Below are positions 3,727 through 20,467 of a stretch of 64,000 bases of DNA, piece after piece. The stretch spans positions 25,718-89,717 of the forward strand of contig DASVQM010000072.1 of assembly GCA_036389095.1 (NCBI GenBank), in the 5' to 3' direction. This stretch comes from Pyrinomonadaceae bacterium (GTDB lineage Bacteria; Acidobacteriota; Blastocatellia; Pyrinomonadales; Pyrinomonadaceae). The notes beneath the pieces are model-generated. The model ran no database searches. It saw only the letters and a program-made list of their open reading frames with translations, and had not been told where the DNA came from. Numbering within the stretch: position 1 is the stretch's first letter; the number at the start of each line of letters is the position of its first letter. The position numbers and the translations under genes were made by a program.

Positions 3727-3728
3727 CC

Positions 3729-3913: not shown

Positions 3914-4415
3914 TCACACGTTAGACTTCGCTTCCCCGACTTTTAGATCACGTAATAATCGATCAAATGAACGCTGGTAATGATCATAATCTTTCCATTG
4001 AGTAAAGTCCCCTATGTGGCGCGTCCTACGAATAAACGCAGGCCAGCCTGAATCAATCTCCATCACTGCATCATCAAGCCGGATTGGATACAGTACTATC
4101 CGCTCGCTACTTCGCTCTCTTTCGAATGCAGTTTCCGCCTCCTTTTCTACCCAACTGCTTGCAATTGAGTTTTCCGAAAGAACTAACAACAGCCAAGTGG
4201 GAGATTCCTGAGTTGCCTTTAGGCTCCCATTTGGCAAGTTTGTGTCTGTGGTAGCGCTTACCTCCGATGTAGTAGAGGTGGATTGGGCTGCGATCTCGTT
4301 GGAGGGATGTTCTGTATGTTTTTCTATACTCATCGAATGAAAGCGAAAGTTCGTATTTGAATACTTCCACGGGTTTAAGCGTAGCCATTAATGATAAGTA
4401 GAATAAGATAACCAT
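3914..4415 (-). pseudogene. degenerate TIR-like domain gene (frameshifted, central part replaced by a Ser/Thr-rich stretch)
   Basis: The C-terminal half WLLLVLSENSIASSWVEKEAETAFERE...IVLYPIRLDD is typical of TIR betaC-alphaC-betaD. A betaA-like KYELSLSFDE lies in another frame starting at ATG 4415, which abuts the upstream stop codon. The two frames switch near 4335. Confidence 0.4.
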
Positions 4416-5120
4416 TCATTTGCTTGATTTCTGTGCAATAGAAGTTATTTTTGAGAAAAGTTTATATTGGGTTGAAAAGCCATTCCCTTCTGCGCTCGTC
4501 CATCGCAACTCCGGATGGTGCGCCAAGTATTCTTCATAACTTTTCCGCTCCTGCATCACTTTCTTTCTTTCTTTTGCTGTCATCTCCTCCGTCAGAATCT
4601 TTTCACAGAGGACGGGCATCAGAACGCACAGCGGGTCTCCGTATTGAAAAGTGATGGTTTCTTTTGGGCGAGGACAAGTGAAAACAAGAAATAAAGGTTT
4701 TGGATACCACCATGTTTCTACTAAACCATTAACCAAATGTGCCTTAGATTGATATTCTGCCGGAAGCGATTGTGTGTAAATTCCTATTCCCGGTTCAGTT
4801 CTTATGAGGTAGTTTGTTGCCAGACCGAAATGTCTCAATGAAAACATCGAAACAATGCTCTTATCGGCTCGCTGACCTATCATGCTTTTTATGCTGAATT
4901 CCGGAATATCATTTTTTCGTCCGGTGATGGTGAGATGAACTCGATGAGGGAACAGCATCAACAGCCCGTAAGATTGCGCATCGATCCAAGGTTTGCAATG
5001 AATCGGTAGCGCCGGTGGCTTCGGCAATTTCGCAAGCCGTCGCTCGCCCTCAGAAATTTGAGGTTTAATAGGCATCAGCTGAGGGGCAGCCTCGTCAAGC
5101 TTAATGTATTTTATTTTCAT
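4416..5120 (-). CDS. hypothetical protein (234 aa; CKPWIDAQSYG motif, possibly DUF6065-like from memory)
   Basis: Clean ORF tightly packed between the neighbouring genes (4-nt gap upstream, its stop abuts the next ATG). Confidence 0.6.
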   Translation of the reverse strand: MKIKYIKLDEAAPQLMPIKPQISEGERRLAKLPKPPALPIHCKPWIDAQSYGLLMLFPHRVHLTITGRKNDIPEFSIKSMIGQRADKSIVSMFSLRHFGLATNYLIRTEPGIGIYTQSLPAEYQSKAHLVNGLVETWWYPKPLFLVFTCPRPKETITFQYGDPLCVLMPVLCEKILTEEMTAKERKKVMQERKSYEEYLAHHPELRWTSAEGNGFSTQYKLFSKITSIAQKSSK

Positions 5121-5124
5121 GACA

Positions 5125-6081
5125 CTAAGCTTTAGTAGCTACTGCAAGAGTCTGGTAGCAGGTGAATGTGGAAAAATTTTGTTGCAACTCGTCCACCGCC
5201 GGCTTAACGTCCGGCCAATTGCTGTTCCCGTAGTCATGAAATGCTACGATTCCACCTTTGACAAGTTTTGGAAACCAAGCATGAAAATCACCCACGATGC
5301 CATCATAAGAATGGTCGGCATCAATAAAGAGCATGCTGATTTTGCTTTTATACTTATCTGCCGCTTGCACTGTGTCTTGAACCAATACCTTCACTTGCCG
5401 CGAGAGTTTGGCCTTTTTAAGATTCTTTTTGAATCGTGGGAGGGATGTAGGAATAGTTCGGGCAAGCTCCGGTGGAAAAGAACCTGCTGCGATATGTTGA
5501 TGCCATTCGTGGTCGTCAACGGCCAACACTCGATTTTTATTCTTGCTCTTGAGCGTGCCTAATGCCAGAGCAATGGTTGACCCGCCGAACATGCTGCCAA
5601 GCTCGCAGATCGGTTCCTTAAAGTTGTTCTCTCTAGCCAGCAAGTAGAGGATTAGACATTCAAGCTCTAGCAGTCCGAGATCATCCACATTGATGGTATC
5701 GCGCAGTTGCATTATCTCTTCTAGTGTTAGTCTTATCTTCCTGCCGTTTAGAGCATATCCTGTGCTGAGAAGCATGCCCGGTTCAATAAGCCTGCGTAAA
5801 ATTTCACACTGGACGGTTTGCTCGTTGCTCTTATTTGATAGTTTAGCTCGCGCCCCCGCGCCAAATTGAGTTAGCAAGCGGAAAGCGTCGTCGCTAAGCA
5901 ACAGACCATAATTGGCCGGCGCATCAGCCCTGAAGTGAACAAACCAATCGGTATTAGTTCTTTTGATTCTTATGTCTCGTGAGAGGATTAACGCAGACCT
6001 TAAGCTTCGGTCGATGTCTATAGGCTTGTCCATCATAATATTTAGGTAGCTGTACTCAACCGCTAATAAAGGTGGCTGCAT
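5125..6081 (-). CDS. class I SAM-dependent methyltransferase (Methyltransf_24-like C-terminal domain) with a ~150-aa N-terminal extension
   Basis: ELGSMFGGSTIALALG (motif I-like) and LFIDADHSYDGIVGDFHAWFPKLVKGGIVAFHDY. The N-terminal part (WFVHF...LLLSDDAFRLLTQF...ILRRLIEPGMLL) faintly resembles a PqqD-type small domain. Confidence 0.65.
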   Translation of the reverse strand: MQPPLLAVEYSYLNIMMDKPIDIDRSLRSALILSRDIRIKRTNTDWFVHFRADAPANYGLLLSDDAFRLLTQFGAGARAKLSNKSNEQTVQCEILRRLIEPGMLLSTGYALNGRKIRLTLEEIMQLRDTINVDDLGLLELECLILYLLARENNFKEPICELGSMFGGSTIALALGTLKSKNKNRVLAVDDHEWHQHIAAGSFPPELARTIPTSLPRFKKNLKKAKLSRQVKVLVQDTVQAADKYKSKISMLFIDADHSYDGIVGDFHAWFPKLVKGGIVAFHDYGNSNWPDVKPAVDELQQNFSTFTCYQTLAVATKA

Positions 6082-6199
6082 CGCCTGAGCCCGACGATGG
6101 GATAATTCACGCAGTCGTAATGAACTTACTTACTGGATAGTCATGCAGAGAGAAGCGGGCTGCCGCTACAGCCCGCTTCTTGAATTAAGCTGCTCCGGT

Positions 6200-6547
6200 T
6201 TACTTGCCCTTGGATGGATGTCTATAGACTATGATCAGGGCAAGCTTTTCATCGGGGAAGACAAATAGAGCTTTACAGGTCGGGCCAGCAACAGAAGACG
6301 GCACATCAGTGTTCACCACAGTCGTTTGAATTCTATAGTCCTCTTTAATGAGCCCTTCTCGGAGTAGATGCGTCTTCGGGTCGGCGAGGAATTTCAGAGA
6401 TTCCGCCGCAGTCATCTCAGTGAAATACTGCGTCCATGTTTCTTCGCGCAGTTCTTTTATGTGTTGGCTGACATTCGTCCACCTGCTTTTCCTTGTCGCT
6501 TTCTTCGCTGCTTTTTTGGCAGGTTTACTTGATTTACGAGTTACCAT
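6200..6547 (-). CDS. small basic protein (Lys/Ala-rich N-terminus KSSKPAKKAAKKATRKSR), function unknown
   Basis: ATG 6547 has AGGAGA about 6 nt upstream. The ORF-track start at 6577 is 10 codons longer. Confidence 0.5.
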   Translation of the reverse strand: MVTRKSSKPAKKAAKKATRKSRWTNVSQHIKELREETWTQYFTEMTAAESLKFLADPKTHLLREGLIKEDYRIQTTVVNTDVPSSVAGPTCKALFVFPDEKLALIIVYRHPSKGK

Positions 6548-6989
6548 GAGGTTTCTCCTTTCGGATTGTGAGATCAATAGGAAGTAGCAACTCCGGATGG
6601 GAAGTCGCCATTTTACAGAAACTGCGATTCATAAGGCAGAGGCAATTTATCCGCAGAAGGTTAGGTTGTCAATACTTATGAAAATGATGCACTTTGTAGG
6701 ATTAAAACAAAAACCTACAGCATACTGATATAACTTATCCTCAAGAACAGATTCTTGGGCAAGCCCCTGCTTCTTCAATGATAGAATCTAGGGATTGACA
6801 TTCTCCTGTTATAGGAATACCTTGCCGCACATCAAGGGTTTTCTCACGTTGACAAGGGCTTACCGTTTTGAGACTTGCTTTACATGACTTACAAGATAGA
6901 GCGGGTGTAAAATGTATCCCGGAACTGCTCGACAAGCTGTTCTTATTTGACTTTTGATAGACCATAGGAAGTCCCCCCACCCTAATAGT

Positions 6990-9302
6990 ATGAAGGGTTC
7001 AGCTACATTTTCTGAAGATCAAGGCTTATCTGCTGAAGTCCTGTCTAAGCTTCAATCTCTAGTTAATTTAATCAGGGGGGAGTGCGCTATAAATGATCTG
7101 TCCGGCCTCATTATGGAGCATCTCATAGATTTATTTAGTCCCGACATTTCCTGTTTTTATATCAGAGACTACAGTACGCAGGACTATCTCAGGGCAGCCG
7201 AATATCCTAATACCTTTTGGCAAAGACAAGACATTCAAGAGAGATTCGATAAAAGACCTAATACGGGCGGAGCGATTGGAAAAGCCATAAGAGAAAAGAC
7301 GGTGGTCTTTATCCAAGACCCTGCGGAAGCCGAATTAAGGGGGGAATATGTTCCTTTTGATCCAGATATAGAAAACGAAATAGTGGTCCCAATTTTAGCT
7401 CAGAGAAGCTTTAGCACTGAGGAAAGTGTTTTTGCTTTGATTATACTGAGTAGGCGGTCCGGAAGAGAGTTTACTCCCGAAGAGCGTCAACTTATTAACA
7501 TTGTTAGTAGTATTATAAATACTATTTATAATAGTTGCTTAGCTAAAGAAGCTAAAGAAAAACGAATTCGGTTCCTTGCGAGTATTACTGAATTACAAAA
7601 TCTCGATTTTGACGTTCTGTTCCAAAACTTCCTTGTCGCCTTATCAGATCTGGTGCATTCGAGATTTACTTCACTCTGGTTATACAACGAGCTAGATGAC
7701 ACGCTCGTTATTAGGTCTTTCTATCCATCAATGCTCAGTGACAAAGAGGTGAGTTTTGAATCTTTTGATAATAGGGTCTTGAAATGCTCCGAGTGCCTGA
7801 GCGGCGAAGTCATTAATTCTAAACAACCCAAAGTTTTCACTCTTATAGATTCAAGCGACAAGTTTAGCAATCCATCGTTCGCTGAAAGGCATGGAATTGA
7901 ATGGTTTATTTCAGTACCAATTCTCGATAAGGATAAAAAGCCTCTAGGCGTAGTCAATATTAGTCCTATTGGCGATGCTCAAGAATTCGGTGAGGCCGCT
8001 CTGGAAACTCTTCTTAGTTATATTTCGCCTATATCGAATGCTATCCGGCTTACATCATTGCTCTTTGAAGAAGATCTACTTTTTTCCTATGACGTTTTTT
8101 TCAAAATAATGCTCGAATTTCGGGATGAACAAGAAAGTTGGGATAAGCTGGCAAGGCTTGTTAGAGATCGAATGAAGTGCGCCGGATGCTCCATCTTTTT
8201 AGCGGAGGCTGATGGTCAGCTACATCTTAAAGGAACAACTGGTTTGATAGGGAATCCCTCATATAAAAAGGTTGTCTATGAACCCGGCAAAGGTCTAACG
8301 GGCACTGCTTTTATAAAAGACACCCCTCTTATCTATTACTCAGAAGCCAATGAGCAATACTTTGGTATACATATTAGTAAGTTCAGAGAATTTACTCCCG
8401 GTAGAAGTAAATCCATTATCTTCGTGCAAATCTTGAATAGAGAAGATCACCCTATCGGAGTGATTCGATGTAATAACAAAGAAGAGACGCCTTCTAGGCA
8501 TATTGGCCGATTTACCAATGAAGACGTTTTTCAGCTACAAAAGATCGCGAAAGTAATTTCGAGCGTGCATTCAAAAATTTCGTGGATTAAGGAAAGAGAG
8601 AAGGAGAGGAATAGTCGCGCAAATAGCCTACACCATGAACTCTTATCTCCTCTAGAAGGTATAACTCAGCATATTGAGTGGCTGGAGTACCACTTTGATA
8701 TTTGGAGATCACAAGATGAGTGGGACAAAGATCGAGTGCTTCTAAAGCTAAAGGACATGAAGCAAAACAGTAAGTTGATCGATGTGGTTGTAACCTCCTT
8801 GGGTCGGTTCGATGAGATACGTTTGAAATTGCGTGATATAAATCTCTCTCATTTTCTCGAAACGTGCAAGGGGTTCATACTCAACGAAGCTAACCGCAAG
8901 GACATTAAAATTAACATCGATCCAATGTATGTGAGAAAGGTTAGAGGCGATGAGACTCAACTCATGAGGGTCTTCTATAATCTTCTAAGGAACGCTGTAA
9001 AGTACTCAGATCCAAAAGAGCCTCATAAATTCATTAAAATTTCTATCACCTCAAATGAGCGAGATCATTTCGTTCTTTCTTTCTCAGATAATGGAATTGG
9101 CATCATTGCAGGCGAGGAAGAAAAAATCTTCCAGATCTATGAGAGAGGATCCAATGCCGCTCAGTACTTCCCCGAAGGAACAGGACTTGGATTGGCGTAT
9201 TGTAGAAGCATAATGGAGAAGCACGGGGGACGAATCACGATAGATCCTAAAAGCTCGTCTAAACCGACGGTTTTTCATCTCAGGTTCCCAAAACTTATGT
9301 GA
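6990..9302 (+). CDS. multi-GAF sensor histidine kinase
   Basis: H-box SLHHELLSPLEGI, N box NLLRNAVKYS, G boxes DNGIGI and GTGLGLAYCRSIMEKHGGRI. The ~550-aa N-terminal region contains GAF-like repeats and no clear TM segment. Confidence 0.8.
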   Translation: MKGSATFSEDQGLSAEVLSKLQSLVNLIRGECAINDLSGLIMEHLIDLFSPDISCFYIRDYSTQDYLRAAEYPNTFWQRQDIQERFDKRPNTGGAIGKAIREKTVVFIQDPAEAELRGEYVPFDPDIENEIVVPILAQRSFSTEESVFALIILSRRSGREFTPEERQLINIVSSIINTIYNSCLAKEAKEKRIRFLASITELQNLDFDVLFQNFLVALSDLVHSRFTSLWLYNELDDTLVIRSFYPSMLSDKEVSFESFDNRVLKCSECLSGEVINSKQPKVFTLIDSSDKFSNPSFAERHGIEWFISVPILDKDKKPLGVVNISPIGDAQEFGEAALETLLSYISPISNAIRLTSLLFEEDLLFSYDVFFKIMLEFRDEQESWDKLARLVRDRMKCAGCSIFLAEADGQLHLKGTTGLIGNPSYKKVVYEPGKGLTGTAFIKDTPLIYYSEANEQYFGIHISKFREFTPGRSKSIIFVQILNREDHPIGVIRCNNKEETPSRHIGRFTNEDVFQLQKIAKVISSVHSKISWIKEREKERNSRANSLHHELLSPLEGITQHIEWLEYHFDIWRSQDEWDKDRVLLKLKDMKQNSKLIDVVVTSLGRFDEIRLKLRDINLSHFLETCKGFILNEANRKDIKINIDPMYVRKVRGDETQLMRVFYNLLRNAVKYSDPKEPHKFIKISITSNERDHFVLSFSDNGIGIIAGEEEKIFQIYERGSNAAQYFPEGTGLGLAYCRSIMEKHGGRITIDPKSSSKPTVFHLRFPKLM

Positions 9303-9309
9303 GGGTGAC

Positions 9310-9717
9310 ATGAAAACAGTTCTTTACGTCGATGATGAAGCAGATACCGAAAAAATGTCTTCGAAGTTTGAGTTAATGAAGGCTGAAGGAATTACGGTCA
9401 TTCCCGCCACAAGAATTAAAATGGCACTCGATGAACTTGAAATGCGACGTGCCTCCATTGATTTGGTAATACTCGACATCATTATGCCCCCGGAAGATTA
9501 TTATAGTTTGGAAGATACGGAGGGGGGGACAACAACAGGGCTTAAACTACTAGAAGAGATTAGGCGAAAGTACTCGGACCTCCCAATCATAATAGTAAGT
9601 GTTCGAAGATCGCCGGGGGTACAGAAGTTTGAGGCGATGTATAATGTTGCTGATTTCCTAGAAAAACCGGTTTCGGCTTTTACTTTGGCTGCTGCAATTA
9701 AGAGGATTACTAATTAG
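9310..9717 (+). CDS. stand-alone response-regulator receiver domain protein
   Basis: VLYVDDEAD, the phospho-acceptor context LVILDIIMP, and PIIIVSV...K. There is no output domain. It starts 8 nt after the kinase stop. Confidence 0.8.
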   Translation: MKTVLYVDDEADTEKMSSKFELMKAEGITVIPATRIKMALDELEMRRASIDLVILDIIMPPEDYYSLEDTEGGTTTGLKLLEEIRRKYSDLPIIIVSVRRSPGVQKFEAMYNVADFLEKPVSAFTLAAAIKRITN

Positions 9718-9865
9718 GTGATAAAACATATATATCATATTCTTTGAAGGTCCGTCCGGCAACGAAACTGCTAATCTTTCAAATTATACGTAGCGCGATG
9801 ATCTAAAATAAGTTTTGATGCTCGTTTAATTCAATTCAGCGTCTAGCTCCTTACCGGCTACTCGT

Positions 9866-10300
9866 ATGGAACATTTAATCTCCCTTATTCGCTACCTAAT
9901 GGAGTATTACTCTGTCCCCGTCATTGGGCTGACTTATATACTCATAAAAATTTTAGTCAAATTTTATATCTATAAAGCCATTGAACACGAGTTCGACTTT
10001 TGGGATGTTCTTGCATGGTTCAGTCTAGATATTATGCTGCTCTCTTTATCTGTTTGTGTTGCCTTAGATGTTCCTTCACAGAAATGGAACCTTAAACCTA
10101 TAGCGTCTTACTTCTTCTATATTATTTTCGTTGTCTTTTGCATCACTAATGGTTTCTGTTACCTTTACTTTACAAAAAGGAGAGACCAACTTGAAAAGAT
10201 TCCTCCGATCAAGGACTTGAAATTGGCCTCCCTTCTGAGTGTTAGTTGGGCTATAGGGTTTTATTGGTTTTGGGGAATTTTTGACGCTCTGAAACAGTAA
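9866..10300 (+). CDS. integral membrane protein (about 4 TM helices), unknown function
   Basis: The hydrophobic segment pattern runs throughout the ORF. Confidence 0.5.
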   Translation: MEHLISLIRYLMEYYSVPVIGLTYILIKILVKFYIYKAIEHEFDFWDVLAWFSLDIMLLSLSVCVALDVPSQKWNLKPIASYFFYIIFVVFCITNGFCYLYFTKRRDQLEKIPPIKDLKLASLLSVSWAIGFYWFWGIFDALKQ

Positions 10301-10315
10301 TTCGGAATTTGGGAA

Positions 10316-10969
10316 ATGGATGATTCATTCAAAATTCTAAAGAAGCTATTTCTCGAACACTACATAGAATTAGTAGTGTTGGCGATAAGTTGGATCTTTA
10401 TTTATTACATTCTTAAGTGCTTAGATCTTCTTGCCCGAAAAATCTTGCTCAGATTACCTTTTTATTTGGAAATTCGGTTGAGGAGAATAATGATTGGGGC
10501 GAGCGCTCAACGTAATAAAATGGTAGCCGGGAAAATGTTAAGCGCAGAGAAGAGATTGCAACTATTCTTGGAAATCGAAAGGCTTCACATCTCTATCGAT
10601 GAAAAGATCTCAAAGATTAAGAGCGGACAACATTGGGTGACGAAAATACTACGACCAGAAAGTATCGAAGATGAATTACAAGAGATAAAAACTAAAGATT
10701 GGGCACTACTGGAGTCCGATTATGCTCTTTGTGAAGCTATTTCCACCAGTGATTTTAGCGCAAGAGGGCTTCGACATTTTATTGGAAACCCTCGGCCTCA
10801 ACCTGCTGAAAAATACGGTCTGCTCATACATAGCGTAAGATTCGGCCCGGAATATACACAGGTGTTAGCCCGGTATTTTATCGATAATGTTTATAAGTTA
10901 GATCAATTAAGGGCATTAAGAAGCCTTGCCTCTCAAAGTAAACAGGAAACCAGTGAGATACATAAATAG
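10316..10969 (+). CDS. hypothetical protein with one N-terminal TM helix
   Basis: ORF starting 16 nt after the previous gene. It has the segment IELVVLAISWIFIYYIL followed by a soluble charged domain. Confidence 0.5.
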   Translation: MDDSFKILKKLFLEHYIELVVLAISWIFIYYILKCLDLLARKILLRLPFYLEIRLRRIMIGASAQRNKMVAGKMLSAEKRLQLFLEIERLHISIDEKISKIKSGQHWVTKILRPESIEDELQEIKTKDWALLESDYALCEAISTSDFSARGLRHFIGNPRPQPAEKYGLLIHSVRFGPEYTQVLARYFIDNVYKLDQLRALRSLASQSKQETSEIHK

Positions 10970-11332
10970 CTCTGACTGAAAGTCTTTACTCTGTTTAATC
11001 ATCTGTCGGATATAGCTTCAATTCCGGTATTCCCGCCGGACATCTCTGAGGTCATAACTAGAAATAAGCTTTCCCTGAGAGCCACTCCTCACAAATGAAT
11101 TTTCCCGTGCGCGTGCCGAAAATGAACACGTTATCCAAGGTACCCATCCCAACCGTCTCGCTGATTAAATCCAGCCACAACATTGCACTTGTAGTGGTTC
11201 ACAAGAGAGGTACCCAACACAAGCCGCCAACATCCATCAGGACAAACCTGACGCCGCCTAGCCGCACCCATCTGAATTGGTCATCCATCTCTAAATCACT
11301 CATTGCTTGAACATCGCCTTTATCGAAGACCT

Positions 11333-13405
11333 TTACATCGCCCACCATGAAATCTCGACCTGTTCAAGAGCAGCGGTCGCGAAATTCCGCACCCTTTCAT
11401 TTGGATCATCTTTGCTGCGTCTGCAAAGCAATTCTCTTATCTTTTCAACGCCGGCGAAGCCGCAAGCCCATAATGCTGCTTCGCGCACTGCCGGATTATT
11501 ATCCTCAACCGCCACCTGTCGCAGGCACTTATTGCCTTCTACACACTGGAGAAAAGCAAGGCAAGCCACGGCTGTTAAACGCGCTTCATAATTCCTTAGC
11601 TCCAGAGCAGGGAAGATGAACCGCGTATCCCGGAGCCAGCCGAGTTGACTGTCAGCCAGCATGGCCTGCAAACAGCATTCATGTCCGCCCCACTTCTTCG
11701 CCGCGTACAGCAGCGCGTCAGTCCGGTCGAACAGGAATTCGGCAGCTAAATGCGGATCTTTTGCAAATCTATTCTGATAGTTGGGATTCGGAATGCGGCG
11801 GATCTCGCCGTATAAAAGCCTGATAAGCTGGTTAGGATCAGTAATATCTTGTGCCAGCGGGTAAAACGGCATTATCACTGGCAGAAGCTCTTCGGCTGTC
11901 CACGCCGCAACGTCTTTTGATACTTCCGATGGAAGATCAAGACCTTTTGATTCTCGCGAGCTAAGCCATTCACGCGTTCTATTGAGGATTCCTTCAACCC
12001 GATCACGAAGCTCCTCCGCATCCCGCCGAGTTGCCGCATCGCCGTACTCACCATTAAGAAGTTGGTCAAGCCCTTGCAATGCATCTTGCGCATCTGCCGC
12101 GATCATTATCGCTCTGCCGATTGCGACTGATGGCAACGCGCAGCCTTCGAGGGCGCATAATTGCTCCTCGGCATTGGCCTCCAGCCAGCGGGATTCAATC
12201 TGGTGCAGACACACAAAGGCGTGGGCATCTCTTACCCCATCAGCGGAATGGTAATAGTATGCGTCGCCATTCACCCTACCCACTTGGTAGACCCGTTGGA
12301 GGACACGCTCATGCCGAGTGCCGTCCCCTCCGTCAATCAGTTCCTTAGAAGCATCCGAGATGATTTGAAAAAGGCTGGATGAGCCGACAGGGTGAAGTGT
12401 ATCGTCCATCTTTATCTCGCTTGATACATCTCTTTGCGTAACCGGCCTGCCGAGCCGCTCGACTGCGCGACGGACGGCTTCACCAATGCGCTCCGCATCA
12501 TTGGCATAAGCATCAATGATGTCGAGCACTTCATCAGGCACATCGCACGGTGCCCAAAGCGACGCATTTTGCCCCGGCCTCTTAATCTTGCGTATCGCCG
12601 CAGCATCGGTTTGGGAAAGCTGGATCATCGCATTGACGAGCAGTTTAGGATTCTTCAAGTTTTCGTGTGGTTGTGGGTCGGAGAGGAGCCGAGTGCGGAC
12701 TTCACCTGTTGAGATGGGTCTAGGCAGGCGATTTTCGGCAGCAGCTTGCCTCAAGTTCTCATTCCACAACTCTCTAAAGGCGTACAGAACTTGATCCAGC
12801 CATGTCAGCGCCTCCGTGGGCATATACTGAGTTGAGTCAAGATCGGAAGGAAGGTATAAATTAGTGCCCTGATTGTCTTTGCGCAGAGGATTGCCTACGA
12901 CTTTTAACTCGCCGGTATCTTTGAGGCTAAGCACGTCATGAGTAATTTCCGCCTCGGACAAGTCAAGTGTTTCCGGGTGTTCGGCTACATACTTCAACAC
13001 GTCATTAACGCGCACGGCACGGTTTAGCAGTGCCACCGTGTCCCTTACTAATTCAAGCACTCGCTGCCTTCGCGACATCTTCGTAGGAAGGTCTCTCGAC
13101 TCCGGGGCGAGAGCATTTACGGAGCCGTAGTAGCGGTTTGCGCCTATTCTACCGGGCGAGAACACAACCTTCCTTACACAGAGCTGATTTAGAACGCTGG
13201 CGACAGTTTGGCTTAAATTCTTGCTGTAGGCCTTTTTAATCCGCTCAATATCTTTCTCCGAAAGAGACAGCGCGGCGATTACTTCGCTGACAGTCGCAAC
13301 TCTAGAGTAAGCGATGTTAGCCACCTCAAGCGCCCGGAGCACGAGCTTGTGCTCGGCTTTAAGCCTTTGGTCAGATTTAGTTGATAGTCTTCTTATCTTC
13401 TCCAT
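11333..13405 (-). CDS. 690-aa transposon-encoded protein: about four winged-helix-like modules plus C-terminal HEAT-like repeats (candidate target selector; not TniQ/TnsD-like by eye)
   Basis: It is the third gene of the tnsB-tnsC operon, 8 nt after the tnsC stop. Repeated HTH-plus-wing-like modules each end in an aromatic hairpin (..GANRYYG, ..GTNLYLP, ..NASLWAP, ..GDAYYYH). The C-terminus has NPAVREAALWACG and DPNERVRNFATAAL, which are HEAT/PBS-lyase-like. No N-terminal Cys/His zinc motif is present. Confidence 0.6.
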   Translation of the reverse strand: MEKIRRLSTKSDQRLKAEHKLVLRALEVANIAYSRVATVSEVIAALSLSEKDIERIKKAYSKNLSQTVASVLNQLCVRKVVFSPGRIGANRYYGSVNALAPESRDLPTKMSRRQRVLELVRDTVALLNRAVRVNDVLKYVAEHPETLDLSEAEITHDVLSLKDTGELKVVGNPLRKDNQGTNLYLPSDLDSTQYMPTEALTWLDQVLYAFRELWNENLRQAAAENRLPRPISTGEVRTRLLSDPQPHENLKNPKLLVNAMIQLSQTDAAAIRKIKRPGQNASLWAPCDVPDEVLDIIDAYANDAERIGEAVRRAVERLGRPVTQRDVSSEIKMDDTLHPVGSSSLFQIISDASKELIDGGDGTRHERVLQRVYQVGRVNGDAYYYHSADGVRDAHAFVCLHQIESRWLEANAEEQLCALEGCALPSVAIGRAIMIAADAQDALQGLDQLLNGEYGDAATRRDAEELRDRVEGILNRTREWLSSRESKGLDLPSEVSKDVAAWTAEELLPVIMPFYPLAQDITDPNQLIRLLYGEIRRIPNPNYQNRFAKDPHLAAEFLFDRTDALLYAAKKWGGHECCLQAMLADSQLGWLRDTRFIFPALELRNYEARLTAVACLAFLQCVEGNKCLRQVAVEDNNPAVREAALWACGFAGVEKIRELLCRRSKDDPNERVRNFATAALEQVEISWWAM

Positions 13406-13413
13406 CTTTCCCT

Positions 13414-14409
13414 CTACTTCTTGTCGCTTGATCCCTTGTCGGACTGCTTCGGATCGCCCTGCTTCTTCTCGTTATGTAACACCTTCTTGTAAGGGCTATA
13501 AGGCTTAGCGGAGTCCCTGAGAGCCTGCATCATGCTCTCGCTAGTCCTCATATATATGGCGCGCAAGAACTCCGCAGTGATCTCACCCTTGGCGTGACTT
13601 AGCCTGTAATCCAACAGTTGGACGAAAGGAGCGATCAGGCCGGGTAAGCCTGAGCACAGTTCATGGATAACTTCCACCTGTTCGCGGTGCCCCTTCTTCT
13701 TGGCGTCCAGAATGGCAAAATACGGGTGTAATTTCGTCAGCAGCGTCCACGTCGCATCAATGTCGTATTGGTCAAAGTAGCACCACTCGTGGATGCGATT
13801 GTGAATTTGCGGGTACTTGATTATCGTGTGAGGCAGATCGTCCATCCCGACGAACACTAGGGTCAGAGTCCACCCTTCGTTTTCGGCGGTGTCGCGGACA
13901 AGATTCATTCCGCGAATCGCGTCCGCCGACAAGCCGCCAGCCTCATCAACGATAATCAACTGGATTCGTTTACGGCGTAGCCCATGGACGAGTTGTGCGG
14001 CGAGCACCTCCGGCGGGTTGCGGATATAGAAACCTTCGTCCATTTGAACGCCGAGGGCAGCTTGATAGAGGCTCCTGATGCCCTTCTTGATCTCATTGCC
14101 GGAACCTTTCACGACCGCGCCGACCTCATAGTGAATCGCCCGGAATGTATCGGGATTGTCCTCATCGAATACCTCGTTGAGATGGTTAGCCATGTAACGC
14201 CCCGTCGTAGTTTTACCGATCCTGCTTCGCCCGTACCAGACGACCAGAGCGCCGCAAGAGTGAACAGAGAGCGTGCGATTGATCATCTCTTTCATCATAG
14301 GCGTAAGGACGATGTCCTTGAGGTCCTTCGGCTTGGCCCTCGGTATTCTGATCCCATCAGCCGTGATGATCGCCCGCTCGGTGTTAATTAAGGTACCCAT
14401 CTTCCCCAC
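13414..14409 (-). CDS. tnsC: AAA+ ATPase of the TnsC/TniB transposition-regulator family
   Basis: Walker A GRSRIGKTT and Walker B LIIVDEAGGL. Its size (331 aa) and its position directly downstream of, and overlapping, the DDE transposase gene also fit. Confidence 0.75.
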   Translation of the reverse strand: MGKMGTLINTERAIITADGIRIPRAKPKDLKDIVLTPMMKEMINRTLSVHSCGALVVWYGRSRIGKTTTGRYMANHLNEVFDEDNPDTFRAIHYEVGAVVKGSGNEIKKGIRSLYQAALGVQMDEGFYIRNPPEVLAAQLVHGLRRKRIQLIIVDEAGGLSADAIRGMNLVRDTAENEGWTLTLVFVGMDDLPHTIIKYPQIHNRIHEWCYFDQYDIDATWTLLTKLHPYFAILDAKKKGHREQVEVIHELCSGLPGLIAPFVQLLDYRLSHAKGEITAEFLRAIYMRTSESMMQALRDSAKPYSPYKKVLHNEKKQGDPKQSDKGSSDKK

Positions 14410-16087
14410 CGTCCTGTCGCTTGAACTCTTCCATTAACCTCTGAATTTCTGCCGCTTTATCCTCCTCTAATGTCTCCATCAGGAATTCCGATTCTTTGCT
14501 TGCCTGCGCCTCTTCGACCCGCCATGCTTCCTCACGCTCGATGCGTTCGGCCTGCTTACGGTCGTTCTCATATACCTCGCGCATATATTCCTTGGTGCGC
14601 TGGATAAGGCCGCGTCGGAACTCGCTGCGCGTGCGCTTGATGTCCACGATGGTGTAGCGCGGGTTTTCGGCCAGCATGTCGAACGCTTCACACAGGAATT
14701 CGCCCGTAGCCGCGCAATAAATCAATACCGAATCCATATCTTCCGGGTTGTAGCGAAGGCAGACCTTGCGCTTCCAATGGTAAGCGAGTTCCGGCGACCA
14801 AAATCTGTGCCTGACGCCGTCAAGCTTGAATTTGATCCCCGTATTCAGCACCGTGCATTCCTTGTCGTACTTGAGAATCAGGAGATTGAGATCGTCCTCG
14901 CTGGCAGGCAGTCGCAGTCGCTTTGTGCTTTCCCAAAACTTTAGCGGCTCGCGTCCCGTCTCGGAGTGCTCGCGCCGGTGATAATCCTTATCAATCCAGC
15001 GGGCTATCTCCTTATCAAGCTGCCGAAGGGTGTAAAACTCGTGAACGCGCTTGAGGGCGGCTTCTTCGGTCACGCCGACGGCGTCCATGTGCCCCGGCAA
15101 AATGCGCAGGCAGCCGGAATCTATGGTTCTGAACATGATCTCGATTTTGCCCTTGGAGTCCGGATGTCTCGGAGGGTCAGGCTCAGGGTTACAGCGTAAA
15201 CCTCTTAGCGTTGCGGCAATCGCGTAGGAGATAAAATCACTTCCCCGGTCGGATTCGAATCGCGTCGGAATACCGCAAAGGATACTGTCCTCTTTCGGAA
15301 GGATGGCGCGGCGGAAGGTGAGTGCGATTACCCAAGAGTCAGGGTATTTGGTCGAGACGACATACGCCATGACGGCGCGGGAGTGTGAGTCAAGTAGGAG
15401 CGTGATATATACTCGGAATGGCCTCCACTCGCCATTGATCTTGACCCTCACCCAAATCTTCAGTGGGCTGTGATCTCCCTGCCAGAGTTCATTCGCGTAA
15501 GTTGAGTTCTCGTAGCGGGTGACCGGTCGTGCCTGTTTGTCCCACTCGCGGATCCCGACTTTACCGTTGCGGGCCAGTTTCAAGCTTTCATCGAGATGAG
15601 CTAGATACTTTTTGACCGAGCTTTCGCATGGTTCAGCGATTTTGCGTTCCCGGCACTCTTCGCAGACCTTCTTCCAGATAGCCCTCGGCCCTGCCGCCTC
15701 GCGAGCGAAGTACCAAGCGAGTGTGATTTTCTTTACCTCGAAGGTGAACACCTTCGCTTCGTATTCCCGACCCCACCGCTTGTCGAGCAAGGCCGGAAAC
15801 CCGCCTTCCTTGAACCTCTTGTATAGATTGCGAGCAGTACGTTCCGTGCGTGAAATCCCAAGGCGTTTGATCGCTTCGCGCGCCCGTACATCGCGATCCA
15901 TCAAATTCACCAGCCCGCAATTCTCAGCATAGATCTGCAACTGCTTATCGCCGAGTTCATCCAGCCTTATCGCTTTGGCGCGAGTTTTATCGTTCGGTTG
16001 ATGGATTACTTCCTGCTCTGTTTGATCCGAAGCTAGTGATTTGGCTTCACGCTTCTTTTTAGTTTTAGGTCTGTTACGCCTTGTCAT
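14384..16087 (-). CDS. tnsB: DDE (rve/Mu-type) transposase of the TnsB/TniA family
   Basis: Catalytic triad contexts are WQGDHSPL, ESDRGSDF and KGKIEIMFRT. It has N-terminal HTH regions and a Mu-transposase-like C-terminal part. ATG 16087 with GGAGGTG upstream is preferred over the ORF-track start at 16261, whose extra 58 aa look non-coding. Confidence 0.8.
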   Translation of the reverse strand: MTRRNRPKTKKKREAKSLASDQTEQEVIHQPNDKTRAKAIRLDELGDKQLQIYAENCGLVNLMDRDVRAREAIKRLGISRTERTARNLYKRFKEGGFPALLDKRWGREYEAKVFTFEVKKITLAWYFAREAAGPRAIWKKVCEECRERKIAEPCESSVKKYLAHLDESLKLARNGKVGIREWDKQARPVTRYENSTYANELWQGDHSPLKIWVRVKINGEWRPFRVYITLLLDSHSRAVMAYVVSTKYPDSWVIALTFRRAILPKEDSILCGIPTRFESDRGSDFISYAIAATLRGLRCNPEPDPPRHPDSKGKIEIMFRTIDSGCLRILPGHMDAVGVTEEAALKRVHEFYTLRQLDKEIARWIDKDYHRREHSETGREPLKFWESTKRLRLPASEDDLNLLILKYDKECTVLNTGIKFKLDGVRHRFWSPELAYHWKRKVCLRYNPEDMDSVLIYCAATGEFLCEAFDMLAENPRYTIVDIKRTRSEFRRGLIQRTKEYMREVYENDRKQAERIEREEAWRVEEAQASKESEFLMETLEEDKAAEIQRLMEEFKRQDGGEDGYLN

Positions 16088-16589
16088 ATCGTAGTCCACA
16101 CCTCCTATGCGAAAACTTTTGGCGATTACCTTGTGCTGATGCCAAGCGGTTGGACTCAAGCCAACAGATTCAGCCTTAAGGCTACAGCTTTGTGTTATAA
16201 ATAAAACAATATGCAATAGATAAAACACTTTGGGCATAAGAGTCCTAAAGTTCGAATACATCTCCTCAACTACCTCCTATCACCGTGCTGACTGTCGAGA
16301 GAAAATTTGCTTGTGAGTGTCGGTTCCTATGGATAGGACTACGGCGATGGCGGGAGACTTACTTAATGATCGGTATTTACTTTCCCTCACTGCCTGACCT
16401 CCTCGCGATTTCTCTCAAACCGCTAACAGTCCCTATTAGGGTCACGGGAACGTACCCTGTCAATGTGTTTTTTTATCGGTATAAACTTACACAAAAAAGA
16501 GCTATGAATTCGCTGTGTTGAGTATGGTTTTAAGACTCGAATTCTCAAATTGACAGTCCAACCGCGATTTACTTGAAGCACAACACTGC

Positions 16590-17237
16590 TTAACCATCCT
16601 TGAGTTCAGGTCCATCCAGATAGTTCAACCGGCGGTAGATCTTTCTTACAAGCTCGACGTCACGAATGCAGTAGTCGGCAATCTCTTGGTGACGGCCCGC
16701 GAGGAAAAGATCGTAAACGGTGCTGCCATCAATCCCATTTTTCTTTGAACTCTCCAGTCCTAAAACTTTAGCCACGTCGTCTAGCTTGATGCGATGTCTC
16801 CAGTGACAGAATTCCCACATCACGTCGAAAACGGGATGCGAACGGAACCGGGCGAAGCACACTTTGAAGCTCGGCTTAATTTGTTTGATCACACTGCGAG
16901 TGCAGATAAACGGGAGATCGAAATCCAATAGGTTGAAACCGATCAGGAGATCGCGACGAGGGTTAAATTCTTTGACTAGCTTCCAGAAGGACCGGAGTGT
17001 CCTAGCCTCGTCAAGATGAAACTCCTTTGTGTTCCGGCTGCGCCCGATTACGCCGCGAAGAGTGATTTCATCATCTTCCTCGACGATCAGGCCGATGCAT
17101 AAGAGCCTGCCGTATGCGCCGTTTAAGGATAATTTGCGGAACTCCTCTGCGTCGGATTGCGACGCACAGTTTTTTATTAGGGGATCGTCGTTATCCGGAG
17201 GGATAGTTTCGACATCGAGGTAGATTTTCTTAAACAT
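16590..17237 (-). CDS. predicted 3'-5' exonuclease related to the PolB exonuclease domain (DEDD/RNase H-like fold)
   Basis: Exo I YLDVET, Exo II FNLLDFDLPF, Exo III YCIRDVELV. Confidence 0.7.
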   Translation of the reverse strand: MFKKIYLDVETIPPDNDDPLIKNCASQSDAEEFRKLSLNGAYGRLLCIGLIVEEDDEITLRGVIGRSRNTKEFHLDEARTLRSFWKLVKEFNPRRDLLIGFNLLDFDLPFICTRSVIKQIKPSFKVCFARFRSHPVFDVMWEFCHWRHRIKLDDVAKVLGLESSKKNGIDGSTVYDLFLAGRHQEIADYCIRDVELVRKIYRRLNYLDGPELKDG

Positions 17238-17428
17238 CTGGACACCTCGACCATTGCTGAGTAGACTTGCTCGGTTTAGCTGCGGATTAACTTTGTTTTA
17301 TACATTGTATGTTGTCGCGTCTATGAAAAGAGGGCGCGCAGCTTAACCTATCTTAGGTTGAATTGCAACAGTTTTTTTAACCTATTTTGGCTTGAGTCGG
17401 AAAGAGGTCGGATTCTCCCGAAATCCTG

Positions 17429-17653
17429 ATGAAATCAGACTTGAGTGGCAAATACGAACAGTTTCAACGCTTGTTGATTCAAGCTAGAGAAGATGCCGGA
17501 TTGTCTCAGCAGGATGTGGCCGACCGTTTGGGCCGCCATCAGACCTACGTGTCTAAATGCGAACGTGGGGAGCGACGCATGGATCTGATTGAATTTCTTG
17601 AGATTGCACGGGCTGTTGGGTTCGACCCGCACAAATTCATAAAAAAGCTTTAG
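17429..17653 (+). CDS. XRE/Cro-CI family helix-turn-helix transcriptional regulator (74 aa)
   Basis: LSQQDVADRLGRHQTYVSKCERGERRMDLIEFLEIARAV. Confidence 0.8.
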   Translation: MKSDLSGKYEQFQRLLIQAREDAGLSQQDVADRLGRHQTYVSKCERGERRMDLIEFLEIARAVGFDPHKFIKKL

Positions 17654-17708
17654 GACATGGTGCTTCATTCATCGGTGGAGGTTCCCGCTGCCGAATTTGC
17701 TTAAATAG

Positions 17709-17747
17709 TAAGAGCGCCGTAGCGGGAGGTTACGGCGCTCTTATTTG
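17709..17747 (+). terminator. intrinsic terminator-like hairpin downstream of the 74-aa XRE gene
   Basis: TAAGAGCGCCGTA-gcgggaggt-TACGGCGCTCTTA followed by TTTG. Confidence 0.55.
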
Positions 17748-17936
17748 CACGGTCCTTTATCTCCGTAAGAAAGGGCCGTGCCCCGCCACGCCCCCCCACC
17801 TATAGCGCGTGGCGGCTCGCGGCACTGTCTGCTCCCCCGCGCAGATGTGCCTGCGAGAGGCAGGCTTCACAGGGTAGGCTTTCTCAATCAAGAGGCTCTA
17901 ATTTTTAAGAGTGGAACAACCATTGGTGCCTTCTAG

Positions 17937-18752
17937 CTACTGTATATAGACAAGTCGCCATCCGTTATCGTAACGCTGAAAATACGCGATAGCTTTTCTA
18001 ATAGCGGTATTTATTTCTGACGTGTCAGCCAAGGGCGTTCGTTGAAGCAAACCAATTGGCTGCTTAAGCCCTTGCTGGAGCTTCGGCGGGAGGCTCTTGT
18101 ATGCCGCGCTGGTCGGATCGAATGCCTCCCCAACAGAAGTAGGTATGGCGCGCCAAGTAAATTCCGCTTGTGCCCCCCCGTTTTGAGTTTTGATAATCCC
18201 GGTTACTTCAATCACTCGTTTCGTGAAGAGTGGGATGGTCCGCCCATCGCTTCCTGCTTCTTTTTTTCCCTTCTCGGTAAGATTGACTCGAATAAGGAAC
18301 TTCCACGGCGCTAGGCTGTCTTTGCCTAGTGGGGTGCGTGCAGTTGAGCCGTCGGGCCTCTCTACTTTGAATTCCGGCGCTTTAATGGTTTTTGGCTTTT
18401 GGATGACCTGAGCCGTGATTTCAATCAGGCCCATGTGTTGAAGGATCGCCAACGCAGGGTGGTTACCAAGAAATGCCTCTACAGCGCGTGGCTGCGCTAC
18501 GGACTCATCCTCGTCATCTGATTGAGCGGGGACGGAGACATTCTCGTATTCATCCTTCAATGCTACTGCTGCCGGTTCCTTAAACTCTTTAGCTTGGCTA
18601 ATTAAATTTGAAGCGCGTGAGCGTGTCAGGTCTTGTGATTGAGCACAATTCGATGTTAGCAGAATGAGAGCAAAAGTAGCTAAAACAACACTGGTTGGTT
18701 GATGAGGCTGACAGCTTTTGATTACGGTCATAAATGGTAAGGACATAATCAA
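17937..18752 (-). CDS. secreted or lipoprotein-like hypothetical protein (271 aa)
   Basis: N-terminal hydrophobic signal (VVLATFALILLTSNCAQS). No recognisable catalytic motif. Confidence 0.55.
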   Translation of the reverse strand: MIMSLPFMTVIKSCQPHQPTSVVLATFALILLTSNCAQSQDLTRSRASNLISQAKEFKEPAAVALKDEYENVSVPAQSDDEDESVAQPRAVEAFLGNHPALAILQHMGLIEITAQVIQKPKTIKAPEFKVERPDGSTARTPLGKDSLAPWKFLIRVNLTEKGKKEAGSDGRTIPLFTKRVIEVTGIIKTQNGGAQAEFTWRAIPTSVGEAFDPTSAAYKSLPPKLQQGLKQPIGLLQRTPLADTSEINTAIRKAIAYFQRYDNGWRLVYIQ

Positions 18753-18990
18753 TCTCCTAGCGGCATGTGATTTGGTGCGATAAGTAATACTGACTTTAAG
18801 TTAATCGTCTATTGTTGGCTCATTTTTGTAGCGGCATCCACCACACTTTGGTATAAAGTGTTGCAATCCTCTTTGAAGAGAACGTGCAGCACCTTATGCG
18901 CTTGGCGGCTCGACTAAATCGCCCCGGATGATGTGCGTCGCTGTGAAGCCTTTAATCGAGCTTCCGGCGATTCAACACTTTCTCAACGGG

Positions 18991-19040
18991 CTAAATACAA
19001 CTGTATTTAGCAGCCATATATTAAATACAGTTGTATTTAG
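18991..19040. promoter_or_regulatory. two 20-bp palindromic operator-like sites spaced 30 bp apart, upstream of the 111-aa XRE gene
   Basis: CTAAATACAACTGTATTTAG (18991-19010) and TTAAATACAGTTGTATTTAG (19021-19040). Confidence 0.6.
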
Positions 19041-19091
19041 ATGCAAGGGCGGCTGGAAGATTTTTAATCCATCAGGAGGAAAGCTTTCCTG

Positions 19092-19427
19092 ATGAGACGA
19101 ACTTCCAGACAGCGTCCGGCTCGACTTGCCGAGAAACTTTTGTATATCCGCGCCACGCTAGGTCTTTCACAGAATGAGATGATCCGACGGTTGGGATTTG
19201 AAAATGAACTCACACAAGGCCATATTTCAGCTTATGAAAGGCAGAAGGAGAATCGCATACCACCGCCCGGCATTTTGCTAGCCTACGCGCGCGCGATCTC
19301 GACCACAGGTGGAGGCGAGTTTCTGGAAGCTTTGATTGATGATGAAATGGAATTACCTAATTTGTTTCCAGCTAGTCCTAGTAAAGTTATTAAGACTAAA
19401 CATCCTGCTGGAACTAAAAAATGTTAA
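19092..19427 (+). CDS. XRE-family helix-turn-helix regulator (111 aa)
   Basis: LGLSQNEMIRRLGFENELTQGHISAYERQKENRIPPPGILLAYARAI. Confidence 0.75.
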   Translation: MRRTSRQRPARLAEKLLYIRATLGLSQNEMIRRLGFENELTQGHISAYERQKENRIPPPGILLAYARAISTTGGGEFLEALIDDEMELPNLFPASPSKVIKTKHPAGTKKC

Positions 19428-19837
19428 TTACGCGATGATCGCTTTATTAAATATTGCTTGAAGTTTGTCAGAGCTTACAGCGGTATTCATTCGGATGCGA
19501 CCCGAAGCGATTAACCATCTTCTGCCTTCGCCAGCAGCGGATTTGGAACGGGAAACTAGCCGGAGGTCGCATGCGAGTTAATCCCGCTATAAAGCTTGTT
19601 TTGTTAGCTGAATACTAGCAATGTTTGCATGGGAGGCATAATACTTACTTTTGAGATATGTGGCTCTTTGAATAAAGGCTTCTGGTAAGACTCAATCTCT
19701 CTCGCGAGAGTAGACATCTAACGCTTGAATTAACCCGCGCCGAGTATAAAGCATTCAAGCCAAAAGGAAGACAACGATGAAAGGAATGCTGTTGAGCGGT
19801 CGGGTTGAATGAGTTGTTATGCTTCGCGTTCGAGGAA

Positions 19838-20467
19838 TCATATCCACCCTCGTGTGTATTTCGCGTAATTATATTCATCAATAAGCTTGAGAAGTGTCTT
19901 ACCCATTGCTTTAGGATTTAGACTAGATTGTAGCCTTTCTGCCATGTCTTTCGACTTCCTGAAGAATACAAGATACTTCTCCGCAGGATTAGAAGAATAC
20001 GCACATCCATAAGCCTGCGCAATTTTATAGTCCCACAGAGGAAAGAAATCTGGAGCGAGCAGATGTAATGCTTTCGCCACTGCTACCGGACTCTTTTGAC
20101 CTTTCTTCTTTCCATCATTGATTCGGAGGGCATTGAGAAAATGCTGAAACAGATGCTCAATTGCTTTGTCATCGGCAGAGGTGTAATTCGAGATGCTTGA
20201 GTTGCGGTACTTGTCGAGTAAAGGAAGGTTCTTCGATATACAATCTTCAAGCTTATCGAAATCAAAGATGCCATACCTGTAGAACGCATGATTCCAAGTT
20301 AGCAATAACACGCCCAAACTATCTGCGATTTCAGCAGACTTTCCCCAGAAATGGTCAACGAGGAAAGTTGCTGTTCTATACATGGAATCTCGCTTCTCAC
20401 GCTTTTGAAAAGCAAGATACCCTTTCTTGAAGTCCACAGAAATTGGAGTGCTCATCGTTTTATTCAT
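19838..20467 (-). CDS. hypothetical protein downstream of res (about 210 aa)
   Basis: Coding-looking ORF. ATG 20467 (MNKTMSTP...) is preferred over the longer track start at 20614, which adds a Cys/Arg-rich leader. No motif recognised. Confidence 0.45.
   Translation of the reverse strand: MNKTMSTPISVDFKKGYLAFQKREKRDSMYRTATFLVDHFWGKSAEIADSLGVLLLTWNHAFYRYGIFDFDKLEDCISKNLPLLDKYRNSSISNYTSADDKAIEHLFQHFLNALRINDGKKKGQKSPVAVAKALHLLAPDFFPLWDYKIAQAYGCAYSSNPAEKYLVFFRKSKDMAERLQSSLNPKAMGKTLLKLIDEYNYAKYTRGWI

Follow-up and report, generated by a model that had tools for sequence, protein, structure and literature searches.

In the described systems of the transposon family built around the transposase TnsB and the regulator TnsC, site-specific insertion depends on TniQ/TnsD, alone or together with Cas effectors, TnsF or TnsP, or on TnsE. 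Elements that encode TnsB and TnsC with neither TnsA nor TniQ are the "TnsBC elements" of a recent preprint by Hsieh et al. (10.1101/2024.11.13.623437), which includes a cyanobacterial element (CP000117.1) with the order TnsB-TnsC-'gene of unknown function' and a type I-E CRISPR-associated transposon (CAST). We examined an element of this general kind in a 64,000-nucleotide stretch (hereafter the window) of contig DASVQM010000072.1 from a Pyrinomonadaceae bacterium. Its third transposition gene, here called X, stands in the place of tniQ and encodes a 690-aa protein with predicted winged-helix domains and HEAT repeats, and the element is inserted beside the stop codon of pilC. We conclude that X is probably the targeting component of the element, that is, a TniQ-independent candidate target selector for the pilC 3' end.

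Several described systems share parts of this arrangement. In Tn7, Tn5053/Tn402 and the CASTs the gene for TnsD or TniQ follows right after that of the AAA+ regulator, and in the tniA-tniB-tniQ-tniR order of Tn402 it is the tniQ slot to which the place of X is equivalent. Tn7 at glmS also inserts in one orientation just past a conserved gene with its right end proximal, and arrays of several helix-turn-helix (HTH) domains are the means by which TnsD reads DNA (PMC10293859). X differs from TnsD/TniQ in being without the TniQ core, the zinc finger and any detectable homology, in its HEAT C-terminus and in its site, the pilC stop codon. Tn7-family insertion can also be directed by proteins other than TniQ, namely TnsF in Tn6022 and TnsE in Tn7. 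The former has the fold of a dead tyrosine recombinase and acts through TniQ; the latter, with its PriB-like domains, recognises replication structures (PMC10293859). In Foldseek searches X resembled neither and has no TniQ partner. The type V-K CAST ShCAST provides the nearest solved homologues of the window TnsB and TnsC and is likewise without TnsA, but it targets via Cas12k, a guide RNA and TniQ, whereas the window element has no CRISPR component or TniQ. Tn552 (transposase p480, ATPase p271 and resolvase) has the same two-gene core of DDE transposase and ATPase, with about 30% TnsB identity, but no third X-like gene, and it carries a serine resolvase. The TnsBC elements share the DDE TnsB with a Mu C-terminal domain, the AAA+ TnsC and the absence of TnsA and TniQ, and their accessory genes set the lifestyle; those described have hitherto been regarded as telomere-bound or apparently untargeted, and a conserved protein that selects a specific site is not among their reported components. 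A survey of Tn7 target selectors makes no mention of HEAT, winged-helix or pilC (PMC10293859), and full-text searches turned up no paper in the library searched that brings HEAT repeats together with TnsB and TnsC, and none that connects pilC to Tn7-like elements and their attachment sites.

The tnsB-tnsC-X module

The transposition genes of the window element are the following.

11333..13405, minus strand: X, candidate target selector; four winged-helix domains, then a helical hairpin, then HEAT repeats (list of open reading frames (ORFs), translation, Pfam, AlphaFold2 model)
13414..14409, minus strand: TnsC-like AAA+ regulator, 331 aa (Pfam, PHROG, PDB profile)
14384..16261, minus strand: TnsB-like DDE transposase, 625 aa (Pfam, PDB, PHROG)

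The first-pass annotation described X as a third gene packed behind tnsB and tnsC in the TnsD/TniQ slot, and this was confirmed from the sequence. The 3' end of the tnsB ORF overlaps the start of the tnsC ORF, and the gap between tnsC and X is 8 nt, the TAG of tnsC being followed by the ribosome-binding-like stretch AGGGAAAG and then by the ATG start of X. In Pfam TnsB matched rve and Mu-transpos_C, with the rve domain complete, and TnsC matched AAA_22 and, weakly, TniB; the PHROG matches were to a transposase for TnsB (1.8e-59) and to 'DNA transposition protein' for TnsC (2.6e-13). Given the full rve domain of TnsB and the retained Walker A (GRSRIGKTT) and Walker B (LIIVDEAG) motifs of TnsC, the transposition machinery appears to be intact. 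The closest solved relative of TnsB was ShCAST TnsB (5e-22) and the best PDB match of the TnsC family profile was ShCAST TnsC (9.5e-7). Among 72,556 plasmids the nearest transposases were Tn552-type and cyanobacterial Mu-like (about 30% identity), and identity to the TniA of Tn402 was 24%.

No TnsA domain was found among the scanned island ORFs of the window or in nine related gene tables. By these comparisons the element is of a TnsA-less, TniQ-less TnsB/TnsC type (Mu / Tn552 / Tn5053 / type V-K CAST-like); it is not Tn7-like sensu stricto, there being no TnsA alongside TnsB. The earlier picture of tnsB near the pilC-side end had to be abandoned, since tnsB lies 10.5 kb inward of the right end, which makes the module central, unlike in Tn7. 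Given a core of TnsB and TnsC without TnsA, a replicative, Mu-like mechanism is likely by analogy.

A word-indexed search with X returned 84 clusters, mostly from Pyrinomonadaceae and other Acidobacteriota, with the homologues named "hypothetical protein" or "HEAT repeat" in databases. An exhaustive profile search gave 218 representatives (50% identity) at E<=1e-30 and 305 at E<=1e-10. X founds an unannotated family, mainly of Acidobacteriota (Pyrinomonadaceae) but also present in Gemmatimonadota and Bacteroidota. Twenty genome loci of X homologues were fetched with 10-kb flanks, including Ferruginibacter (Bacteroidota), Gemmatimonadaceae and Longimicrobiaceae metagenome-assembled genomes, and the order tnsB-tnsC-X was seen in every fetched locus with upstream sequence. 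Nine added loci, including other phyla and a remote member (profile E 1e-67), had the same trio. Co-occurrence with tnsB and tnsC thus held throughout, homologues being found only within tnsB-tnsC-X modules, in the window and 28 other loci, wherever upstream sequence was available. When ORFs were clustered across 25 loci, TnsC and X were present in 25/25 and TnsB in 22/25, the three loci without TnsB being cut by contig ends. Of the other real families the commonest encode an HTH protein (9 loci), an exonuclease of PolB type (6 loci) and a tyrosine recombinase (5 loci); the remaining cargo differed completely between loci and X was constant. The gene tables of the X loci contained no TniQ or TnsA domain, and no X homologue was found on the 72,556 plasmids of PLSDB. 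An apparent TnsC-X fusion (P0058, 1008 aa, identical to an ORF of locus L013) was rejected as evidence of coupling because its Cys/Arg-rich nonsense linker marks it as a frameshift product. Given that X is the only universal accessory protein of these elements, it is by elimination the best candidate to supply specificity.

The position of X in the tniQ slot of the Tn402 order could also mean that it is a very divergent TniQ/TnsD, and the frequency of HEAT and HTH proteins in defence islands, in an element rich in defence-type cargo, could mean that it is linked cargo. Both ideas were examined by sequence and by structure. Pfam gave no TniQ match in X (PF06527, which covers the N-terminal HTH and zinc-finger region) at E<=0.1, and NCBIfam gave no match of any kind, TniQ/TnsD included. 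Alignment by hhalign of 55 X sequences with the Tn402 TniQ of plasmid R751 had a probability of 0.09%, a PDB sequence-profile search with the X family retrieved no TniQ or TnsD chain, and Foldseek against PDB returned no TniQ, TnsD, TnsE or recombinase fold. The claim that X has no N-terminal TniQ zinc motif, originally made by eye, was borne out: residues 1-105 hold one Cys and one His, which gives no zinc-binding Cys/His pattern, and the N-terminal half of the family (55 homologues) has no invariant Cys or His. A TnsE or TnsF signal was absent in Pfam, NCBIfam, PDB profile, Foldseek, PADLOC and PHROGs. PADLOC and PHROGs had no match for X at all, so that no defence or cargo family was assigned, and Foldseek against viral structures gave nothing meaningful. 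X is thus unrelated to TniQ/TnsD by every sequence and structure criterion. Together with the constancy of X beside wholly variable cargo, this leaves a divergent TniQ/TnsD or a linked cargo gene very improbable.

Element ends and junctions at pilC

The element and its junctions were mapped as follows.

3727..26826: whole transposon, 23,100 bp, transposition genes on the minus strand (low-GC island, end sites, direct repeat)
26830..28059, minus strand: pilC, T2SSF platform protein (PilC/GspF), 409 aa (Pfam T2SSF, E 8e-68)
26756..26826, minus strand: right end, terminus CCTGCGA read inward from pilC, sites of type GGTAAAGTTAATTTACCG (pilC-flank comparison, motif scan)
26720..26754, minus strand: terminator-like hairpin just within the right end (sequence, hairpin energy)
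3727..3808, plus strand: left end, terminus CCTGATG, sites 3734-3751 and 3757-3774
26827..26834: 8-nt direct repeat, right copy, reading GTCTCAGT (plus strand) or ACTGAGAC (pilC orientation)
3719..3726: 8-nt direct repeat, left copy (GTCTCAGT)
3600..3718, minus strand: relic right end of an older element ('A-type'; terminal CCTGTCGCG, repeats, hairpin)

To locate the ends, the sequences past pilC were compared between loci and then scanned for motifs and their spacing. The element matches a low-GC island (GC content 0.40-0.53 vs 0.56-0.62 in the flanks) and has sites of about 18 bp in inverted arrays at both ends. The end-site motif had five matches in 30 kb, three at the right end, where the sites are contiguous with 23-nt spacing (26802-26819, 26779-26796, 26756-26773), and two inverted at 3734-3774. 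A weaker third left-end site is predicted at 3791-3808 from the spacing at other left ends (22-24 / 33-36 nt), and the layout of three plus three sites recurs in relatives (right about 22-23 / 22-23 nt, left 33-36 / 22-24 nt). The termini are CCTG...CAGG (CCTGCGA... and ...CATCAGG), TGT...ACA being the usual form in TnsB/TnsC transposons, and the left end of locus L101, whose X is 89% identical, is near-identical to that of the window element. The layout of right end and hairpin recurs in five other loci (L010, L020, L031, L062, L075), and in the window the hairpin now probably terminates pilC transcription.

A 5-bp target duplication could not be reconciled with symmetric termini, searches for terminal inverted repeats by exact seeds or blastn-short failed since the ends are degenerate, and an apparent terminal-repeat pair in L003 was a coding coincidence.

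Other repeats were observed near the right end. At the pilC junction (26820-26846) the last codons before the pilC stop, TCGCAGGG, have their reverse complement in the right terminus, CCCTGCGA (pilC orientation), which creates an 8-nt inverted repeat around the pilC stop codon; the left termini of several relatives end in ...CAGG(GCC), resembling the pilC 3' end, and these likenesses may be coincidence or adaptation. The sequence AAATGAAACGCACTTG occurs as five direct copies at 26148-26365, some 460-680 nt inward of the right end, with a spacing of 22-23 nt for four of them. The copies overlap a 104-aa ORF (25998-26312, minus strand); they are distinct from the end sites and could be iteron-like or regulator-binding sites. 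A non-coding 27-nt direct repeat, GTAGAATGGTTGTTGCTGTGTAYGMCC, is also found inside the right end (26509-26535 and 26610-26636, 93% identical, 101 nt apart).

The fixed position beside the end of pilC that had been proposed for the element was confirmed: it is inserted in one orientation with its right end 3 nt past the pilC stop codon (26830-26832), which falls inside the right copy of the direct repeat. For comparison, 80 pilC loci whose products were 81-89% identical to the window PilC were collected from metagenomes. About 72 of the 80 have a plain terminator after the stop, usually with a histidine kinase gene downstream. These are empty sites, and their number indicated that insertion is sporadic and acquired. 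In the window, L010, L016 and L020, three tandem repeats of about 20-23 bp followed by a terminator hairpin lie past the stop. The right termini are 3-4 nt past the stop in the window, L010, L031, L062 and L075, and right ends in general are 0-4 nt past it except for one at +8, an A-type array in L080, and the array of L020 (Longimicrobiaceae) at 12 nt, which is also followed by a terminator. The single orientation and the narrow range of these junctions are not those of random insertion. Among the X-bearing loci the right junction was visible in the window and L010 only, both at the pilC stop; when the DNA upstream of tnsB was searched for right ends in loci other than the window, that of L010 alone fell within the fetched flank. 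The cargo of L031, L062 and L075 offered no useful homology by which to connect these loci with X elements, and of the three L062 alone has an end similar to those of L010 and L007.

The pilC region of L020 (7757-10300) contains, about 2.2 kb beyond the array and in the same orientation, a 97-aa stretch that matches the HEAT repeats at the C-terminus of X with 43% identity. This locus is without tnsB or tnsC and is probably what erosion has left of an element that inserted at this site in a further phylum.

Left junctions were searched for by the spacing of their sites (33-36 and 22-24 nt apart) and 13 were found. A TAA or TGA is located 2-6 nt past the terminus in 12 of the 13 (window, L004, L007, L009, L012, L013, L019, L101, L105, L109, L110, L111), against a chance of about 5% per fixed position, and it is often preceded by GGCC-AC/AT, the PilC "...G-H-stop" ending. 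Between the left terminus and the next element there are 7-10 nt in the other loci. Two genomes have two X elements each, 38-50 kb apart and in the same orientation, and in L007 the left end is 7 nt from the next right end, which indicated that new elements pile up at one and the same point. These junctions show that insertion at the pilC stop is specific in site and in orientation, and we propose the pilC 3' end as the attachment site. Given that this specificity is kept despite widely differing end sequences, a dedicated targeting function is needed.

What follows the left end is in most cases the remnant of another element. The relic in the window has three 20-nt repeats ACAATAAAGTTGGTAACT at 3636-3695 and a strong terminator hairpin at 3600-3635; it abuts an rsgA GTPase gene (2891-3646, minus strand) that is seemingly without its N-terminal domain. 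A-type relics consist of a CCT terminus, three or four 20-nt repeats and a terminator. Such an array, with three or four copies of a AATAAAGT core, follows within 7-10 nt at 8 of the 13 left junctions, namely the window and seven other X elements (L004, L009, L013, L019, L101, L109, L110), and it is found directly past the pilC stop in L016 and L080. Other right-end-like arrays come next at three left junctions (L007, L105, L111). The triple AATAAAGT repeat with its terminator was also considered as the native pilC 3' region, which was rejected since about 72 of the 80 loci are plain and the genes beyond are not syntenic, and a reading as a mini-element resembling miniature inverted-repeat transposable elements was rejected as there were no inverted copies nearby. 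L016 has, 1 kb downstream of X (3815-4079), a right-end-type array of three contiguous sites and a hairpin pointing toward X; the element there has been rearranged, or else its subfamily is laid out differently.

That nearly every X element precedes a relic array means that something other than pilC may be recognised. X could read the resident end arrays, in which a relic right end has its 20-23-bp repeats three times in tandem, with new elements piling up before an older one that had come to pilC by other means. The eight A-type junctions and the three with other arrays are as this idea predicts, four repeated DNA-binding-like modules would suit a tandem-repeat target, and just one or two of the 80 sampled pilC loci have such an array alone. 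However, the array sequences vary widely between loci, the left junction of L012 runs into plain sequence with no array, and at a hot spot it is ordinary for an older element to erode until just its pilC-proximal end and terminator are left; in addition, metagenome contigs tend to break at mobile elements, so that the 80-locus sample is biased. On balance, recognition of the arrays instead of pilC appears quite unlikely.

Domain architecture and candidate role of X

The only Pfam match of X was HEAT_2 (PF13646) at residues 599-681 (E 8.9e-11). An AlphaFold2 model built on 55 homologues (mean predicted local distance difference test score 87) has four modules of three helices and a hairpin, of winged-helix type, at about 17-95, 112-186, 202-286 and 303-385 (wH1 to wH4), a long helical hairpin at 391-483 and a C-terminal half of helical repeats, with paired helices over 561-681 that match HEAT and alphaRep structures. 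The first-pass annotation recognised four HTH-plus-wing modules ending in aromatic hairpins, and the model and the conservation among the 55 homologues agree with it: the last wing strands carry GANRYYG (88-94), GTNLYLP (180-186), NASLWAP (280-286) and GDAYYYH (379-385), and Y93, Y184, W284 and Y383/Y384 are invariant or nearly so. Its second structural claim, of C-terminal HEAT/PBS-lyase-like repeats, likewise stands, from the HEAT_2 match and the helical model. The modules are mutually related (hhalign probability 61-90% for 4 of the 6 pairs). The best Foldseek matches in PDB were RPC62 (four winged helices), YceH, TFIIIC tauB and HEAT/alphaRep proteins, and the family profile matched only HEAT/alphaRep among PDB sequences. 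RPC62, an RNA polymerase III subunit, and TFIIIC tauB also have four extended winged helices followed by helical elements, but they are eukaryotic transcription factors and, at 12-13% identity and low TM-score, the likeness is one of analogy and not of family membership.

From this architecture a mechanism can be proposed. The last 90 nt of pilC, well conserved in 81 loci, are the obvious sequence for a selector to read, and the winged-helix array, above all the basic wH1 and the conserved Arg and aromatic residues of the wings, would read the last few tens of bp. The docking site for the TnsC ATPase would be formed by the helical hairpin together with the HEAT repeats, and TnsC would then recruit TnsB bound at the paired ends, so that the right end is joined beside the pilC stop. 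Without TnsA the reaction would probably be replicative, with cointegrates resolved by tyrosine recombinases (in some relatives) or by host recombination. We infer that X contacts and recruits TnsC; the nearest relative, ShCAST, depends on a selector acting through TnsC, which is in favour of a targeting role. That X reads pilC DNA directly, as the modelled fold suggests, is somewhat less probable than that it is the targeting component in some form. The fullest version, in which X is a self-sufficient, TniQ-independent and sequence-specific selector with the winged-helix array as DNA reader and HEAT as TnsC dock, and is possibly reprogrammable, we hold at a little short of an even chance.

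Several observations weigh against X as a selector reading pilC. DNA binding by X is a prediction from its modelled fold, and winged helices are also protein-protein modules, as in the top structural match RPC62, whose winged helices serve mostly to contact proteins. Only wH1 is clearly basic: its mean net charge is +5.4, compared with about -0.2, +3 and +2 for wH2-4, and in the window X itself wH2-4 have net charges of -2, 0 and -4. With regard to the site, the right end lies past the 10-kb flank for most X loci, where adjacency to pilC is deduced from the left junction, and the left junction of L005 had no clean fit and is the exception among the 13. The tnsBC-X module of L016 is inverted relative to its nearby right-end-type array when compared with the window. 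Both junctions were seen only for the window element, and the direct repeat there is 8 nt, unlike the 5 nt of Tn7, Mu and Tn5053. The target duplication of Tn552 is 6-7 bp, not 5, which makes an 8-bp repeat less odd in this clade.

The charges of the winged helices bear also on a different role for X, that of an essential or regulatory cofactor (one that loads TnsC or adapts it, that acts in immunity or assembly, or that bridges to a host protein at the pilC end), with specificity coming from TnsB, TnsC or a host factor. Arrays of HEAT repeats and several winged helices such as those of RPC62 and TFIIIC are classic protein-protein scaffolds, and three of the four winged-helix domains of X are not basic. 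TniQ itself can be a mere bridge to a different DNA-binding protein, to TnsF in Tn6022 (PMC10293859) and also with TnsP in PAST elements (10.1101/2024.11.13.623437). On the other hand, the elements encode no other conserved protein able to give specificity, a host factor would have to be common to all three phyla that host them, and wH1 and the wings of X have conserved Arg and aromatic residues. A cofactor role is therefore unlikely, though it is the most credible of the alternatives. A DNA-binding selector had been put forward as a reasonable hypothesis, and X is still the candidate after four checks (TniQ/TnsD homology, cargo-family matches, co-occurrence with tnsB and tnsC, and randomness of insertion), none of which went against it.

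Accessory genes, cargo and implications

One accessory gene of the window element is located directly upstream of tnsB.

16590..17237, minus strand: PolB-type 3'-5' exonuclease gene (Pfam DNA_pol_B_exo2, PF10108, E 1.3e-16)

This gene is recurrent but not universal (6/25 loci), with homologues near the module in L002, L003, L017, L019 and L101, and its product could process transposition intermediates in a TnsA-less element. Further upstream, a perfect 19-nt inverted repeat, CTAAATACAACTGTATTTA / TAAATACAGTTGTATTTAG, 12 nt apart (18991-19040), precedes a Cro/C1-type HTH gene (19092-19427) that has homologues in 9 loci, and the repeat looks like an operator for a module repressor. A second TnsC-like AAA_22 gene was found directly after X in three relatives (L005 12055-12903, L006 12064-12966, L101 12129-12983), 36-41% identical to the window TnsC in alignment. 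Tyrosine recombinase genes are present near the module in four relatives (L010 12065-13967, L102 12141-14073, L103 6118-7149, L110 3579-4556), though not in the window; those of L010 and L102 have as a partner a conserved ORF of 261 aa that is encoded by the opposite strand, and the recombinases may act as cointegrate resolvases.

The cargo of the window element (3914-10969 and 19838-26034) is rich in defence and signalling genes. Among its products are a TIR-domain protein (3914-4333), DUF6065 and a methyltransferase; a GAF histidine kinase is accompanied by a response regulator (6954-9717), and Mod (23207-25318) and Res (20662-23199) make up a type III restriction-modification pair. In relatives NACHT, SIR2, TIR, nSTAND, CHAT and Abi genes were found.

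If X is indeed the targeting component, these elements would represent a new solution to the problem of safe-site targeting, spread over a few hundred clusters in poorly studied soil phyla and directed to a precise chromosomal site, and the pilC stop codon would be a new attachment site. If the three proteins suffice, X would define a new class of protein-guided selector for TnsB/TnsC transposases, and the element would offer a compact three-protein system for the study and engineering of protein-guided DNA insertion. Targeting of this kind would also explain the defence-rich islands that gather downstream of pilC in Acidobacteriota.

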